From sequence record MT478991.1: a DNA stretch of 64,000 nt. One strand, written 5' to 3'. Below, in pieces: positions 2,829-60,546 of this stretch; position 1 is the first letter of the stretch; the number at the start of each line of letters is the position of its first letter. Source of the stretch: Escherichia phage vB_EcoM_011D4. Position numbers and translations under genes: made by a program. The notes beneath the pieces were generated by a model. That model made no database searches, had not been told where the DNA came from, and worked only from the letters and a program-made list of their open reading frames with translations.

Positions 2829-2864
2829 TTGATACTCCTTAGTAGTTCGTTTCGGTATGGGTGT

Positions 2865-2893
2865 ATTATGATATACACCCTCTGTTATGTCAA
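2865..2893 (-). promoter_or_regulatory. early promoter cassette (TTGACA-17-CATAAT) with conserved leader
   Basis: Hexamers read on minus strand; leader ACACCCATACCGAAACGA then AAGGAG RBS. Confidence 0.55.
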
Positions 2894-2899
2894 CAACTT

Positions 2900-3079
2900 T
2901 TAGAACATTTTTGAAATTAATTCTGCTTTGATTTCGCAGAGAACATCTAAAGATTTCTCGTCACCTGCTTTTGCGGCTTCTGCTTGCATTTTTGAAATGG
3001 CTTCAATGTCAGTGCAATTATAAGCCGCTTGAACTTTAGCGATTGCGATGATTGCCGATTCGATGGTTAATTGTTTCAT
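2900..3079 (-). CDS. hypothetical small protein (59 aa), below ORF-track cutoff
   Basis: Hand translation MKQLTIESAIIAIAKVQAAYNCTDIEAISKMQAEAAKAGDEKSLDVLCEIKAELISKMF; RBS AGGAGAATCAAAC-ATG; own promoter cassette. Confidence 0.45.
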   Translation of the reverse strand: MKQLTIESAIIAIAKVQAAYNCTDIEAISKMQAEAAKAGDEKSLDVLCEIKAELISKMF

Positions 3080-3111
3080 GTTTGATTCTCCTTTCGTTTC
3101 GGTATGGGTGT

Positions 3112-3140
3112 ATTATAGGGGATCGATGATCCCCTGTCAA
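3112..3140 (-). promoter_or_regulatory. early promoter cassette; palindromic spacer GGGGATCATCGATCCCC
   Basis: TTGACA-17-TATAAT on minus strand. Confidence 0.55.
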
Positions 3141-3148
3141 CAAATTTT

Positions 3149-3667
3149 TTAGTTATTTTTTAATTGCTCATCTTGCAATAGGGCAATCACATGCTGGCGA
3201 TGTTCTTCCGATTGAGGCACACCGAAAAAGTTTGTTTTGTAGAAATACTCTAATCGGTCTTCTCGTGTGCTCTCTTCCATCATGATCGCGGGTAGTCCGA
3301 GATTTCGGAAACGTCGCTTTTCTGCTGGCGTAAAATCACTGTAATACAACATAGAATCATCATTACAAGCAATGCTAAACTCATCCTTCATAAAGGAGAA
3401 TATTGCGTTTAAACGCTGTTTACCGTCCACGATTTCGATCTCATAGCGAGAGCCATCATCAATCTTAGCCATTGCGATAGCACCAACCGGAAAATCATTA
3501 ATCAGGTTTTCGATAAACATACGTTTGTTTTCGGTGTCCCATACTAAAGGACGCTGATAATCTGGGTTCATGTTGATATAGCCATCTTCTAACCATGCAT
3601 CATAAACAGAGATGACAAAGTTTTTAGTATTGGTATAGTAACGGCGTTTAGGCGTTAAACGGTTCAT
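3149..3667 (-). CDS. DUF262 / ParB-Srx-like domain protein
   Basis: Motifs NPDYQRPLVW and IVDGKQRL typical of DUF262 (GmrSD N-terminal / ParB-like); start moved to ATG at 3667 with AGGAGA RBS; coupled to upstream gene (TAAcATG). Confidence 0.55.
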   Translation of the reverse strand: MNRLTPKRRYYTNTKNFVISVYDAWLEDGYINMNPDYQRPLVWDTENKRMFIENLINDFPVGAIAMAKIDDGSRYEIEIVDGKQRLNAIFSFMKDEFSIACNDDSMLYYSDFTPAEKRRFRNLGLPAIMMEESTREDRLEYFYKTNFFGVPQSEEHRQHVIALLQDEQLKNN

Positions 3668-3668
3668 G

Positions 3669-3998
3669 TTATAGTCTCCTGAATGGATCATCACGTAAAT
3701 CAATATCTTTTAAGAACTCATCCCATGAATGGCGGATGTTGTTCTTAATTCTCCAGATAAGAGCAGGGATTGAACGCTCTCCCATCTGGAAGTATGGATC
3801 ATATGATCCGTATGCCCAATATGCTACTACAATTCCACAATCAGCGCAATAGTATTCTATTTCACTTGCTGGCGACCAAAGTCCATCAATATGATCGGTG
3901 ATCTTGCTTTCGATGTTATGGCTATGACAATCAGGGCAACGGATGCAATGACCTTGTTTATCGTAATTTGACGTTAGCGAATACTTAAACAATCTCAT
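3669..3998 (-). CDS. Cys-rich zinc-ribbon protein (109 aa)
   Basis: CxxC...CxxC pattern (CIRCPDC ... CADCG); start overlaps stop of upstream gene (TAATG). Confidence 0.55.
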   Translation of the reverse strand: MRLFKYSLTSNYDKQGHCIRCPDCHSHNIESKITDHIDGLWSPASEIEYYCADCGIVVAYWAYGSYDPYFQMGERSIPALIWRIKNNIRHSWDEFLKDIDLRDDPFRRL

Positions 3999-4714
3999 TA
4001 TAGATCCTTATTTGCTTCAAATACTGCCTTTGCGAATCCTCGCGGGGTAAGTGACCTTATAGTCTTTGTTTTCGTTCCTTTCCCGCCTAGCTTAGAATGC
4101 TGTTTACTGTACCCTTTATTAATCTGCAACGGTTTCTTTTCTGGCATTATAAAGCCTTGTCCGGTCCATAAGCAAGTCTTTTTCGGGTACATATCACGGG
4201 CGGCAATATACTCAGGAAACGTAGGATGCTTATCATCTTCCGGCAAATAACCGCCATATTCCCACGGATGGAACATGTAATCAGGCTTACGCCACATGCT
4301 AGAGATAACGCTTACAGGATTCTCTATCATGTAGGGAACTCCGAGCCATTCACCCAAATAAGCGGTTATTTTAGCTGCCCGTACATCATGAACTTGAATC
4401 AATGGTCCTTGTTCTCGTTTCTTTCGTTCAAAGTGCGCAGCGCCACTAACAGCTAAATTGGTGCACGGTGGGAATGCAAAGATAATATCCGGTTTCCCCC
4501 ATTCAAGGTCCATTGCTCTTTCCAGCCAGTTCAAATCAATCCAGGTGTTTACATAGGTAATGTTTGGATGTTCAAATCTGGTATTATACTTTTTGTATGT
4601 ACCGTGGTCGGCGTCATCCGCATTAAAGCAGACTACCTTATGACCTGCTTTAGCCCATTCTAGCCCCATTATCCCCGATCCGTCAAAGTTGCAGAATATT
4701 AATTTTTGTTTCAT
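3998..4714 (-). CDS. C5-cytosine methyltransferase-like protein (short, no obvious TRD)
   Basis: FxGxG-type motif I (FCNFDGSGIMGLEWAKAGHKVV), PC motif IV (FAFPPCTNLAVSG), ENV-like motif VI (YMIENPVSV); only 238 aa. Confidence 0.5.
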   Translation of the reverse strand: MKQKLIFCNFDGSGIMGLEWAKAGHKVVCFNADDADHGTYKKYNTRFEHPNITYVNTWIDLNWLERAMDLEWGKPDIIFAFPPCTNLAVSGAAHFERKKREQGPLIQVHDVRAAKITAYLGEWLGVPYMIENPVSVISSMWRKPDYMFHPWEYGGYLPEDDKHPTFPEYIAARDMYPKKTCLWTGQGFIMPEKKPLQINKGYSKQHSKLGGKGTKTKTIRSLTPRGFAKAVFEANKDL

Positions 4715-5244: not shown

Positions 5245-5273
5245 ATTGTAGGGGAGTTATCCTCCCCTGTCAA
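5245..5273 (-). promoter_or_regulatory. early promoter cassette; palindromic spacer GGGGAGGATAACTCCCC
   Basis: TTGACA-17-TACAAT. Confidence 0.5.
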
Positions 5274-5287
5274 CACTTTTTATAAAA

Positions 5288-5455
5288 TTATTTGTTAATT
5301 TCTGGTGCGTTGCTAGGATAGTAACCTTCTTTAACTCCGAGGTATTTCGCAACCATCCCTACAATCTTCTGTGCTACTACAATGTCAAATTTCAGATAAT
5401 CTTCACCGTAGGTTTCAATGATATATGCTTCACATGCTGCTTTAGTCTCGAACAT
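5288..5455 (-). CDS. hypothetical small protein (55 aa), paralog of 8544-8711
   Basis: Hand translation MFETKAACEAYIIETYGEDYLKFDIVVAQKIVGMVAKYLGVKEGYYPSNAPEINK; about 85 percent nt identity with 8544-8711 by eye. Confidence 0.5.
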   Translation of the reverse strand: MFETKAACEAYIIETYGEDYLKFDIVVAQKIVGMVAKYLGVKEGYYPSNAPEINK

Positions 5456-5488
5456 TTTGATTCTCCTATTTCGTTTCGGTATGTGTGC

Positions 5489-5517
5489 ATTATAGGGGAT
5501 CTCCCGATCCCCGTCAA
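5489..5517 (-). promoter_or_regulatory. early promoter cassette; near-palindromic spacer GGGATCGGGAGATCCCC
   Basis: TTGACG-17-TATAAT. Confidence 0.5.
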
Positions 5518-5844: not shown

Positions 5845-5873
5845 TATTATGCTATGTTCTTACTTTGGTGTCA
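5845..5873 (-). promoter_or_regulatory. early promoter cassette
   Basis: TTGACA-17-CATAAT plus conserved leader. Confidence 0.55.
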
Positions 5874-5881
5874 ACAACTTT

Positions 5882-6244: not shown

Positions 6245-6271
6245 AATAAAAAAGCCGACGCTAAGGTCGGC
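6245..6271 (-). terminator. rho-independent terminator
   Basis: GCCGACCTTAGCGTCGGC then TTTTTTATT. Confidence 0.6.
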
Positions 6272-6279
6272 TAATAAAA

Positions 6280-6925: not shown

Positions 6926-6971
6926 AATTTGATTCTCCTAGTTAGAAAGTGTATCTCGTTTCGATGGGTGT

Positions 6972-7000
6972 ATTATGCTATACACCCGACCTCATGTCAA
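6972..7000 (-). promoter_or_regulatory. early promoter cassette
   Basis: TTGACA-17-CATAAT plus conserved leader. Confidence 0.55.
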
Positions 7001-7608: not shown

Positions 7609-7810
7609 ATTCTAGTTCTCCGTAATACACAGTAATCCATTTTTCTTCATACTTTGTATCTTTCCAGCACACAATCCCGTTTACTGTGCAATCTTTGGAA
7701 TTGACGAATGATTCATATTGTTCTGCATCTTCCATCATTGCATGAGCGGTCTTTTCATCGAATATATCGCAGATCGCTTTATATGCTCGATAATCTTTAA
7801 ATTTGCTCAT
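7595..7810 (-). CDS. hypothetical protein, paralog family C
   Basis: MSKFKDYRAYK... similar to product of 7813-8022. Confidence 0.45.
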   Translation of the reverse strand: MSKFKDYRAYKAICDIFDEKTAHAMMEDAEQYESFVNSKDCTVNGIVCWKDTKYEEKWITVYYGELEYEIN

Positions 7811-8479: not shown

Positions 8480-8511
8480 TTTGATTCTCCGTTTGTTGTC
8501 TTTATGGGAGT

Positions 8512-8540
8512 ATCTTACTACTCCCTTTAATCATTGTCAA
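8512..8540 (-). promoter_or_regulatory. early promoter cassette; hairpin GGGAGTAGTAAGATACTCCC across -10
   Basis: TTGACA-17-TAAGAT. Confidence 0.5.
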
Positions 8541-8543
8541 CTA

Positions 8544-8711
8544 TTATTTGTTAATTTCTGGTGCGTTGCTTGGATAGTAACCTTCTTTAACACCCAGATA
8601 TTTTGCAACCATTCCGGTGATCTTCTGTGCTACTACGATATCGAATTTCAGGTAGTCTTCACCGTGGTTTGCTACAATGTATGCTTCGCATTCTGCTTTA
8701 GTCTGGAACAT
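8544..8711 (-). CDS. hypothetical small protein (55 aa), paralog of 5288-5455
   Basis: MFQTKAECEAYIVANHGEDYLKFDIVVAQKITGMVAKYLGVKEGYYPSNAPEINK; start moved to ATG at 8711. Confidence 0.5.
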   Translation of the reverse strand: MFQTKAECEAYIVANHGEDYLKFDIVVAQKITGMVAKYLGVKEGYYPSNAPEINK

Positions 8712-8745
8712 TTTTGATTCTCCTATATCTCGTTGGTATGTGTGC

Positions 8746-8774
8746 ATTATAGGGGATCACAGATCCCCTGTCAA
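8746..8774 (-). promoter_or_regulatory. early promoter cassette; palindromic spacer GGGGATCTGTGATCCCC
   Basis: TTGACA-17-TATAAT. Confidence 0.55.
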
Positions 8775-9871: not shown

Positions 9872-9901
9872 ATTATAGGGGAGTTTAACCTCCCCTGTCA
9901 A
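9872..9901 (-). promoter_or_regulatory. early promoter cassette; palindromic spacer GGGGAGGTTAAACTCCCC
   Basis: TTGACA-18-TATAAT. Confidence 0.5.
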
Positions 9902-10268: not shown

Positions 10269-10297
10269 AGTATAGGGGATCGGTGATCCCCTGTCAA
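10269..10297 (-). promoter_or_regulatory. early promoter cassette; palindromic spacer GGGGATCACCGATCCCC
   Basis: TTGACA-17-TATACT. Confidence 0.5.
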
Positions 10298-18441: not shown

Positions 18442-18474
18442 CTTGATACTCCTTAGTTGTTTTGGTATGGGAGT

Positions 18475-18503
18475 ATCTTACTACTCCCGTGATATACTGT
18501 CAA
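18475..18503 (-). promoter_or_regulatory. early promoter cassette; hairpin across -10
   Basis: TTGACA-17-TAAGAT. Confidence 0.5.
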
Positions 18504-18661: not shown

Positions 18662-18699
18662 TTGATTCTCCTTAAAGTGTATTTCGTTTCGATGGGGGT

Positions 18700-18728
18700 A
18701 TATTACTACCCCCGTTTCATGCTGTCAA
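18700..18728 (-). promoter_or_regulatory. early promoter cassette; hairpin GGGGGTAGTAATATACCCCC across -10
   Basis: TTGACA-17-TAATAT. Confidence 0.5.
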
Positions 18729-18947: not shown

Positions 18948-18980
18948 TTTGATTCTCCTTTGTTTCGTTTCGATGGGAGT

Positions 18981-19009
18981 ATTATGCAATACTCCCTAAT
19001 GTGTGTCAA
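18981..19009 (-). promoter_or_regulatory. early promoter cassette; hairpin across -10
   Basis: TTGACA-17-CATAAT. Confidence 0.5.
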
Positions 19010-19411: not shown

Positions 19412-19459
19412 ACAGCCAATAACAAAAAAGTCGCCACTATGGGCGACTTTGAACAAACA

Positions 19460-21647: not shown

Positions 21648-21676
21648 ATTATAGCGGGGATTTCTCCCCGCGTCAA
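21648..21676 (-). promoter_or_regulatory. early promoter cassette; palindromic spacer CGGGGAGAAATCCCCGC
   Basis: TTGACG-17-TATAAT. Confidence 0.5.
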
Positions 21677-23956: not shown

Positions 23957-23997
23957 CAAGTTTATCCTCCATATTGGGGGCTTTCGCCCCCCTTTGT
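23957..23997 (-). repeat. direct repeat with GGGGGCGAAAGCCCCC hairpin, left flank of methyltransferase pseudogene
   Basis: About 35-bp match to the copy at 24757-24797. Confidence 0.5.
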
Positions 23998-24754
23998 TAC
24001 AAGTCTAACGTATTTTGATGTATTCTGTCAACGGCAATTTGATAATATTTTTCGTCTTTCTCTATGCCGACAAAATTTCGATTTAAGTTTCGACACGCAA
24101 CACCAGTTGTTCCACTTCCCATAGTAAAATCCAGAACAGTTTCCCCCTCGTTGGTGTAAGTTTTTATCAGATATTCCATTAACTCTACTGGTTTCTGTGT
24201 TGGGTGCAATCCTCTTTCTTTACATCGACCGGAATAACTTACAATAGATTCTGGGCATTTGGTATCGTATGTTTTATTATTATAGCTTTGGTTTGTGACT
24301 AAAGGGATCGCCCCACTTTCATTTTTGTTGCTTCCTTTTTTAATTGGCTTGTCTCTTTTCGTCATTTGCGGATAATAAAGTGGCATTTTCCAGTTCTTGA
24401 AAATATGATAACATCTTCATGAATTTTTAACGGTTGTCGTTTTGCTTGAACAAAATTTGCCGCAAATTTTTTATCCCACACCCAAGAATAACAGAATCCG
24501 TTCATATTACTATGAATTAATGCCGTTGTGAATGGTTGAGACGCGGTCATGACAATGGCATTTTTAGGTTTAATTATTCTATTAATCGCCGCCCACATTT
24601 CAGTAAATGGTATAACACTATCCCATTTACACGCTGTTGTTCCATATGGAGGATCACAAAGAATTAAATCTACGCTTTCCGTTTCAATTTCTTTCATCAG
24701 TTCCAGACAATCCCCGTTCATCAACCAGATTTTGTCAGTTCTAACGTCATTCAT
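23997..24754 (-). pseudogene. beta-class DNA methyltransferase (N6A or N4C) split by a +1 frameshift
   Basis: ORF 24362-24754 has DPPY motif IV; ORF 23997-24386 has HPTQKP and DFTMGSGTT (motif I); the two overlap by 25 nt in different frames. Confidence 0.55.
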
Positions 24755-27731: not shown

Positions 27732-27758
27732 CACCTTTTTCATAAAATTTTAGGCAAT

Positions 27759-27790
27759 AAAAAAGCCTCCCCGAAGGGAGGCTGTAAAAT
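27759..27790 (-). terminator. rho-independent terminator downstream of gene 32
   Basis: GCCTCCCTTCGGGGAGGC then TTTTTTATT. Confidence 0.65.
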
Positions 27791-46022: not shown

Positions 46023-46055
46023 AATATATTCCTCAATGTTTTTCTTGATGGGAGT

Positions 46056-46084
46056 ATCTTACTACTCCCTTAATCCGGTGTCAA
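46056..46084 (-). promoter_or_regulatory. early promoter cassette; hairpin across -10
   Basis: TTGACA-17-TAAGAT. Confidence 0.5.
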
Positions 46085-47208: not shown

Positions 47209-47219
47209 CAACTTTTTAA

Positions 47220-47246
47220 AATAAAAAGCCGACCACAAGGATCGGC
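47220..47246 (-). terminator. rho-independent terminator
   Basis: GCCGATCCTTGTGGTCGGC then TTTTTAT. Confidence 0.55.
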
Positions 47247-54226: not shown

Positions 54227-54256
54227 ATAAGTCAACCTTTTGTTTTCGATGGGGAC

Positions 54257-54285
54257 ATTATGATATATCCCCTATCTGGTGTCAA
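54257..54285 (-). promoter_or_regulatory. early promoter cassette
   Basis: TTGACA-17-CATAAT. Confidence 0.5.
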
Positions 54286-54593: not shown

Positions 54594-54627
54594 TATTAAA
54601 TCCTCATAAAAGAAAAGGGAGACTCCC

Positions 54628-54655
54628 ATTATAGAGAATCTCCCTTTTATGTCAA
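54628..54655 (-). promoter_or_regulatory. early promoter overlapping a 10-bp-stem hairpin that could also terminate gene 39 transcripts
   Basis: TTGACA-16-TATAAT; AAAAGGGAGA ... TCTCCCTTTT inverted repeat then T-run. Confidence 0.45.
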
Positions 54656-60517: not shown

Positions 60518-60546
60518 ATTATTGTCTATCTGGTTTGTGCTGTCAA
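60518..60546 (-). promoter_or_regulatory. early promoter cassette
   Basis: TTGACA-17-AATAAT. Confidence 0.45.

Follow-up and report, generated by a model that had tools for sequence, protein, structure and literature searches.

The promoter at 3112 to 3140 (minus strand) has an inverted repeat with two GATC sites between its -35 and -10 elements, and the question that it raises is what such a palindrome does: whether it is read as duplex DNA, methylated, recombined or folded. The window, that is, the whole 64-kb stretch of DNA that was analyzed, is identified by its nucleotide identity as that of an RB49-like Krischvirus coliphage, a 'pseudo-T-even' T4-type phage. A 4-kb piece around the promoter matched RB49, phi1, GEC-3S, JSE, and about 50 other Krischvirus genomes over its full length at 98% identity. 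The minus strand carries most genes in 1 to 32 kb and 43 to 64 kb of the window. The region from 2.5 to 22 kb is the counterpart of RB49 ORF185 to ORF233, a run of small hypothetical ORFs, and about 26 cassette promoters lie within the window with hypothetical ORFs alongside.

Spacer-filling hairpins in seven promoters

Seven minus-strand sigma70 promoters of near-consensus sequence (TTGACA or TTGACG, a spacer of 17 or 18 nt, and a TATAAT-like hexamer, with zero or one mismatch each) showed a G/C-rich hairpin of 7 to 8 bp spanning the whole spacer. Palindromic spacers had been predicted at these seven places, and all of them were recovered on the minus strand. The spacer is 17 nt at six sites and 18 nt at one. 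The first site, S1 (3112 to 3140, TTGACA-GGGGATCATCGATCCCC-TATAAT), has an 8-bp hairpin at 3117 to 3135 with the loop ATC and two GATC sites, and the TAA stop of the upstream ORF lies 8 nt ahead of its -35 element. S2 (5245 to 5273, TTGACA-GGGGAGGATAACTCCCC-TACAAT) has a 7-bp hairpin at 5250 to 5268 with a loop of 5 nt and no GATC. In S3 (5489 to 5517, TTGACG-GGGATCGGGAGATCCCC-TATAAT), the 7-bp hairpin at 5495 to 5512 has the loop GGGA and two GATC sites, and its register is shifted by one base, the last G of the -35 TTGACG being the first stem base. S4 (8746 to 8774, TTGACA-GGGGATCTGTGATCCCC-TATAAT) has its hairpin at 8751 to 8769. S5 (9872 to 9901, TTGACA-GGGGAGGTTAAACTCCCC-TATAAT), with the 18-nt spacer, forms 7 bp at 9877 to 9896 around a loop of 6 nt. 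The hairpin of S6 (10269 to 10297, TTGACA-GGGGATCACCGATCCCC-TATACT) lies at 10274 to 10292. S7 (21648 to 21676, TTGACG-CGGGGAGAAATCCCCGC-TATAAT), downstream of nrdA, has a 7-bp hairpin at 21654 to 21671 with a GAAA loop and no GATC.

The stems are of three types, GGGGATC…GATCCCC at four sites, GGGGAG…CTCCCC at two, and GCGGGGA-GAAA-TCCCCGC at one. The original prediction had described the first type as GGGGATC-N3-GATCCCC at about 3112, 5489, 8746, and 10269, which is exact at three of these sites (3118 to 3134, 8752 to 8768, and 10275 to 10291), but the site at 5489 reads GGGGATC-GGGA-GATCCCC, with a loop of 4 nt. Similarly, GGGGAG-N5/6-CTCCCC was correct for 5245 and 9872 but not for 21648, which has the third stem. 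The three exact copies compare with 0.05 expected, and at least three copies were found in 0 of 100 shuffles of the window. A random 17-mer of the same base composition would form a Watson-Crick stem of 7 bp in any one register with a probability of 0.26^7, or about 8e-5, whereas 7 of the approximately 26 cassette promoters have such a spacer stem. The spacer palindromes are thus highly nonrandom and far above chance.

At five sites, the last A of TTGACA forms an extra pair with the first T of the -10 hexamer, and the spacer is therefore completely taken up by the hairpin. The hairpins extend from position 5 to position 22 to 24, counted from the first base of the -35 element, without exception. 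As RNA, the core hairpins have predicted energies of -12.8 to -15.1 kcal/mol, and the 51-nt windows around them have folding z-scores of -2.1 to -5.8. In S2 and S7, the -35 flank additionally pairs with the -10 flank in an outer helix, giving about -19 kcal/mol as RNA (for S2, with the helix GUGUUG/CAAUAC, an MFE of -19.4). Folded as DNA, either strand of the spacer hairpins has about -7 to -9 kcal/mol.

Identity of the promoters as PeSL cassettes

The promoters sit in a unit of 70 to 77 nt that is repeated many times and accounts for direct-repeat families in the window. One full copy, at 3078 to 3167 (minus strand), consists of an A/T-rich UP region that contains the stop codon of the upstream ORF, the -35 element, the spacer, the -10 element, the leader ACACCCATACCGAAACGAA, the Shine-Dalgarno sequence GGAGAATCAAA, and ATG. 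The A+T content is 65 to 90% in the 20 nt upstream of the seven promoters, the TAA stop of the upstream ORF lies 5 to 14 nt ahead of the -35 element at all seven, and the Shine-Dalgarno sequence and ATG of the next ORF follow no more than about 45 nt past the -10 element.

This architecture is that of the promoter-early stem-loop (PeSL), which was defined on RB49 and phi1 by Arbiol et al. in 2010 (PMC2839356). PeSLs number about 50 per genome, occur mainly in hyperplastic regions upstream of ORFans, and fall into five subclasses, in the commonest of which the stem-loop lies between the -35 and -10 elements or overlaps the -10 element (PMC2839356). The stem-loop of RB49 and phi1 has also been given as 'GN-loop-CN' (Comeau et al. 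2014, PMC4122927), and the GEC-3S record annotates these promoters as features. The seven sites agree with PeSLs in the promoter, the A/T-rich upstream region, the stem-loop position, the Shine-Dalgarno sequence and ATG, the repetition, and the orthology to named PeSLs: S6 is located between the homologues of RB49 ORF210 and ORF211 and corresponds to PeSL211/210, and S4 between those of ORF205 and ORF206 and corresponds to PeSL206/205. By sequence and position, they are identified as PeSL cassettes of the subclass with the stem-loop exactly between -35 and -10. These elements are therefore already known from the literature, and experiments have been done at some of the same loci: two of the seven sites are orthologues of elements tested in 2010. 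PeSL206/205 was a very strong promoter, with approximately 13,000 Miller units, and was the sole wild-type clone obtainable as a promoter fusion (PMC2839356). For PeSL211/210, the sole element examined for terminator activity, the stem-loop in a single construct reportedly lowered lacZ expression to about the same extent as rrnB T1 (PMC2839356). PeSLs are compact promoter/insulator units flanking small accessory genes of T4-type phages and have been proposed in the literature as linkers for modular gene shuffling. A scan of the whole window against Rfam gave no covariance-model match at the gathering score.

The subclass with the hairpin across the -10 element is also present. The GGGAGTA…TACTCCC hairpins that had been predicted over the -10 element were confirmed at 8506 to 8525, 18469 to 18488, and 46050 to 46069. 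A hairpin of this class at 2859 to 2880 (minus strand), GGGTGTAT-ATCATA-ATACACCC, overlaps the -10 element of the promoter at 2865 to 2893 and ends 6 nt past it; its arms recur at 6966 to 6987. With further copies at 18694 to 18713, 18975 to 18996, and 54251 to 54272, at least eight cassettes carry a hairpin of this class, and its 3' end is invariably 6 nt past the -10 element.

Two other minus-strand cassettes, at 440 to 475 and 54610 to 54650, have a longer hairpin with the -10 hexamer in its loop or adjoining it, and a real T run comes after the hairpin (CAAACGGGGACTAG…CTAGCCCCGTTTTC and AAAAGGGAGATTCTC-TATAAT-GGGAGTCTCCCTTTTCTT). In both, a true terminator-like structure overlaps a promoter.

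Conservation of the hairpin and drift of the GATC sites

The intergenic regions of the window were compared with their orthologues in 11 other Krischvirus genomes, using the N terminus of the downstream ORF as the key. A hairpin of -9 to -15 kcal/mol was present in the spacer at all 68 orthologous sites of the 12 genomes, and GGGGATC-N3, GGGGATC-GGGA, GGGGAG-N5/6, and GGGGAT-CACGT stems interchanged at one and the same site. For example, at S5, the window, JSE, TB34, and KFS-EC have GGGGAG-GTTAAA-CTCCCC; GEC-3S, phi1, and ECD7 have GGGGATC-GGGA-GATCCCC; and RB49, FL37, and kvi have GGGGATC-ACC-GATCCCC. S2 has the GGGGAG stem in eleven genomes and GGGGATC-GGGA-GATCCCC in FL38, and at S6, five genomes have GGGGATC-N3-GATCCCC and six have GGGGAT-CACGT-ATCCCC. 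In S1 of RB49 and S3 of phi1, which read GGGGGTC…GATCCCC, an A-to-G change retained the pairing as G·T.

In an alignment of the 16 distinct 17-nt spacers, 93% of the cells were paired. All three inner pairs showed double-sided changes, and the observed covariation score was reached in 0 of 500 shuffles. The outer five pairs were invariant, which is partly a consequence of the way in which the sequences were chosen. Compensatory changes among orthologous sites bear out the expectation that relatives would keep the palindrome by covariation. The orthologue-by-orthologue comparison of stems is absent from the PeSL papers (PMC2839356, PMC4122927), and what is new here is that compensatory and wobble changes uphold the hairpin in all 12 genomes, whereas the GATC content drifts. 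Judged from these alignments, the conserved feature is the hairpin, that is, the pairing, and not the paired GATC or the stem sequence.

The GATC sites behaved differently from the pairing. The spacer held two GATC sites at 42 of the 68 orthologous sites, one at 8, and none at 18; the number (0, 1, or 2) differed among genomes at five of the six well-sampled sites (S1, S2, S3, S5, and S6), and PeSL211/210 of RB49 has a single GATC. In the window, 362 GATC were observed against 344 expected from trinucleotides, which is 1.05 times the Markov expectation; GATC is thus neither enriched nor avoided, and the spacer sites make up 8 of the 362.

These numbers bear on the proposal that Dam methylation of the GATC pairs tunes promoter strength. 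The two spacer sites, 7 bp apart, would make the early promoters methylation-sensitive, either directly or through a reader of hemimethylated DNA such as SeqA. Two GATC sites do occur in four of the seven spacer hairpins of the window and at the majority of the orthologous sites counted above, and the host has Dam. In its most specific form, the GGGGATC-N3/4-GATCCCC promoters would fire on the injected, fully methylated DNA and would be silenced or reader-bound on the replicated, hemi- or unmethylated DNA, which would couple early-promoter shut-off to replication; the RB49 lineage is not known to have MotA-type middle control. However, the GATC number switches between 0, 1, and 2 at five sites among phages that are more than 92% identical, while the pairing is constant (68/68), thereby ruling out Dam as a general explanation. 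The A-to-G changes in RB49 S1 and phi1 S3 cost a GATC and keep the pair, and GATC was not conserved at a regulatory position across the relatives. Independent phage lineages with the same promoter-plus-hairpin design, described below, have no GATC, and the GATC frequency in the window is close to expectation. E. coli DH5alpha is dam+. In this strain, the S4 promoter was very strong (PMC2839356). We therefore consider a methylation switch highly improbable, and the scheme of firing before and silencing after replication deserves even less credence. The Dam idea, left unconsidered in the 2010 paper, in which GATC, Dam, and methylation go unmentioned (PMC2839356), is new relative to the PeSL literature but is not supported by the comparative data. 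A methylation response is conceivable for individual promoters and does not appear to be the conserved, selected property of the element. The paired GATC would be a by-product that arises when one C:G pair is added to the commonest stem, GGGGAT/ATCCCC, rather than a selected feature.

A methyltransferase locus, a second ORF annotated as a methylase in relatives, and one tetranucleotide bias were observed elsewhere in the window. Between td and nrdA, where RB49 has only a 68-bp intergenic region, a DNA methyltransferase with the N6_N4_Mtase domain (PF01555) lies at 23997 to 24754 (minus strand), split in the overlapping ORFs 24362 to 24754 and 23997 to 24386, which may reflect a frameshift or a pseudogene. 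A megablast search of this insert of approximately 730 bp against 50,697 GenBank phage records gave no match except for the first 69 bases of the query. The ORF at 3998 to 4714 (minus strand) is annotated in relatives as 'DNA methyltransferase', 'Dcm', or 'C-5 cytosine methylase' and had no Pfam match at an E value of ≤0.01; the adjoining ORF at 3149 to 3703 has a GmrSD_N (DUF262) domain. GGCC was observed 27 times in the window against 71 expected, a ratio of 0.38 that is the lowest of all 4-bp palindromes and possibly reflects restriction avoidance.

The same alignments also bear on a sequence-specific protein that reads the spacer in duplex DNA. Binding of a dimeric protein to the spacers had been proposed, and the PeSL authors themselves floated protein binding (PMC2839356); such a protein might be a repressor, encoded by the phage or the host, or a recombination factor, and would recognize the GGGG…CCCC palindrome, the outer GGGG/CCCC being almost invariant. 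However, a G/C-rich stem base is expected from stability alone, and the half-sites are not at a fixed spacing, with loops of 3, 4, 5, and 6 nt between them. Their inner bases change by compensation, and their position relative to the promoter also varies: the G run of S7 is moved by two positions, the register of S3 is shifted as well, and the hairpin of the sister subclass lies approximately 10 bp further downstream. In addition, the G·T variants spoil the symmetry of the duplex while the single-strand hairpin survives. With half-sites that vary in sequence, spacing, and position, an operator is very unlikely as a general account of these spacers.

Because the antisense strand of the A/C-rich leader is G/T-rich and folds trivially better, a comparison of sense and antisense folding over the whole segment is confounded, and the strand test was limited to G·T versus A·C within the main stems. 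Across all cassette hairpins, the main stems had six G·T variants on the sense strand, each of which would be an A·C mismatch on the opposite strand, versus one A·C, which was terminal; although the cases are few, this bias is suggestive of selection on the sense-strand hairpin.

An IMG/VR scan for TTGACAGGGG-N9-CCCCTATAAT found the same design in unrelated large phage contigs, with the inner stems GGGGAT-N5-ATCCCC and GGGGGCT-TCC-AGCCCCC and without GATC. Contigs of 174 kb and 357 to 366 kb carry TTGACA-GGGGAT-N5-ATCCCC-TATAAT (L004, 3983 to 4011; L005, 2200 to 2228; L007, 632 to 660; and L013, 1986 to 2014). The leader that follows these promoters, AACTCCATCGACAACTGA…AGGAAAT…ATG, resembles the Krischvirus PeSL leader. 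A megablast search of L004 and L013 against GenBank phages gave no match. From this resemblance, PeSL-like cassettes may extend to unrelated large phages.

Another explanation is that the palindrome has no function of its own and is carried passively by concerted evolution (gene conversion) of the repeated cassette. The cassettes clearly homogenize one another, and some cassette promoters (5846 to 5874 and 60518 to 60546) have neither a hairpin nor an upstream terminator. Nevertheless, pairing is preserved across GGGGATC, GGGGAG, GCGGGGA, and GGGGGCT stems, in the G·T variants, and in two fixed registers, and the same design occurs in the unrelated phage contigs. We accordingly assign passive carriage a very low probability.

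Proposed role of the hairpins in read-through RNA

The reading that we prefer is that the hairpin, formed in read-through RNA, insulates one early cassette from the next and that the embedded promoter restarts transcription, with a probability of roughly 65%. Each element is a near-consensus sigma70 early promoter with the leader, the Shine-Dalgarno sequence, and the next ORF downstream. The +1 position would lie approximately 7 nt past the -10 element. Both hairpin classes are upstream of this position, so the transcript that starts at the promoter would lack them, and they would occur only in read-through RNA from upstream. The hairpins lie 11 to 20 nt past the upstream stop codon, which is the position of a 3'-end hairpin. 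Folding in the read-through RNA would cause attenuation or termination or provide a stable 3' end, and the promoter wrapped around the hairpin would reinitiate transcription; each early ORFan cassette would thereby be insulated within approximately 30 bp. Attenuation or termination followed by a restart is the PeSL authors' own reading, and, together with the lacZ result reported for the S6 orthologue (PMC2839356), it is the best reading of these elements.

The distribution of conventional terminators was compared with that of the hairpins. Four cassette promoters (6220, 19412, 27731, and 47208) have a canonical terminator, a hairpin with a T run, directly upstream on the minus strand (6253 to 6272, 19427 to 19450, approximately 27740 to 27770, and approximately 47215 to 47245, respectively), and none of them has an internal hairpin. 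Conversely, none of the 14 cassette promoters with an internal hairpin has a canonical terminator upstream. With these small counts (0/14 versus 4/17), the mutual exclusivity is only a trend and is unlikely to be statistically significant.

The hairpins are not canonical terminators, since a U tract is absent. The spacer hairpins are followed by UAUAAU or UAUACU and then ACAC. Their tail is UAUAAUAC, the -10 element itself, and the tails of the '-10' subclass are AUACCGAA and AUCGAAAC; the tails ATAATACA and TATAATGC have 2 to 3 T in 8. None of the spacer hairpins was listed by an intrinsic-terminator scan that called a hairpin followed by at least 5 T in 8. A sigma70-dependent pause at the -10 element might take the place of the U tract, but this idea was discarded as pure speculation, for which the geometry is also unfavorable. 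The hairpin could act by terminating transcription, through a pause, through processing, or by protecting a 3' end, and the lower lacZ expression with the PeSL211/210 stem-loop could instead come from RNA processing or stability. No mapping of Krischvirus transcript ends was found in the literature.

Cassette exchange and possible loop inversion

Perfect palindromes fold equally on both DNA strands, and a role at the DNA level is therefore possible in addition to read-through insulation. A hairpin or cruciform in DNA might start recombination or template switching and thus cassette exchange, which is compatible with a role in RNA. Reverse-complement loops were found at orthologous sites, namely, ACC/GGT at S1, S4, and S6 and, at S4, TGT in the window against ACA in SFHK24. 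The two S4 sites are at 8752 to 8768 of the window and at approximately 7750 to 7778 of SFHK24. Such loop pairs suggest a flip-type inversion of the loop between arms of 7 bp, through either template switching or an event of the cruciform type. Orthologous sites have also swapped hairpin types, -10 variants, and leaders. However, DNA hairpins with arms of 7 to 8 bp reach no more than about -7 to -9 kcal/mol, and such arms are short for cruciform extrusion.

The loop flips are an observation absent from the PeSL papers (PMC2839356, PMC4122927). The published work adds that the stem-loops blocked sequencing reactions without betaine and that PeSL-flanked mini-circles were seen by inverse PCR (PMC2839356). 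The mapped mini-circle crossovers, however, lay between the -10 element and the Shine-Dalgarno sequence or ATG, that is, in the conserved leader, with none in the stem, and homology of the 70-nt cassette alone suffices for T4-type recombination according to the authors (PMC2839356). The earlier idea that the palindromes are recombination sites for cassette exchange therefore fits the published PeSL model in its exchange part, but the crossovers are outside the stem-loop, and initiation of exchange by the hairpin itself is unlikely. As published, the homology of whole cassettes would provide the substrate for recombination and gene conversion between them.

A direct repeat of 172 nt with 85% identity was also observed at 5287 to 5458 and 8543 to 8714. 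The small ORFs downstream of S3 (MFETKAACEAY…) and S4 (MFQTKAECEAY…) are paralogues, and a unit of PeSL and ORF was therefore duplicated.

Comparison with known systems

Promoters under Dam control include the IS10 transposase promoter pIN, pap, with its GATC pairs and Lrp, and Mu mom, with OxyR. The likeness of the present promoters to these is a GATC inside the promoter, here as a pair. In the IS10, pap, and mom systems, GATC is conserved and overlaps a hexamer or the binding site of a regulator, whereas here it lies in the spacer and is not conserved between orthologues. We know of no reader protein for the spacer GATC pairs of these cassettes. An engineered E. coli promoter made by Horwitz and Loeb in 1988 is reported to be controlled by supercoil-induced cruciform extrusion of its palindromic spacer. 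It resembles the present sites in the inverted repeat that fills the -35/-10 spacer, but theirs was artificial, and very strong promoter activity was measured for the native S4 orthologue.

The PeSL authors compared the cassettes with integron gene cassettes and their attC hairpin sites, which are alike in having small promoter-associated ORF cassettes, hairpin-capable repeats, and excision of circles (PMC2839356). Here, in contrast, no integrase or site-specific recombinase was identified, the crossovers are in the homologous leader, and the palindromes are short and perfect, whereas attC folds are imperfect. With intrinsic terminators, the elements share a G/C-rich hairpin of 7 to 8 bp located 11 to 20 nt past a stop codon, and the S6 orthologue reportedly lowers downstream expression like rrnB T1; unlike intrinsic terminators, they lack a U-rich tail. 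The closest match is the PeSL of RB49 and phi1, with which the seven sites share the genus, the loci, the architecture of a promoter plus G(n)-loop-C(n), and the hyperplastic ORFan setting, and from which they differ in nothing essential.
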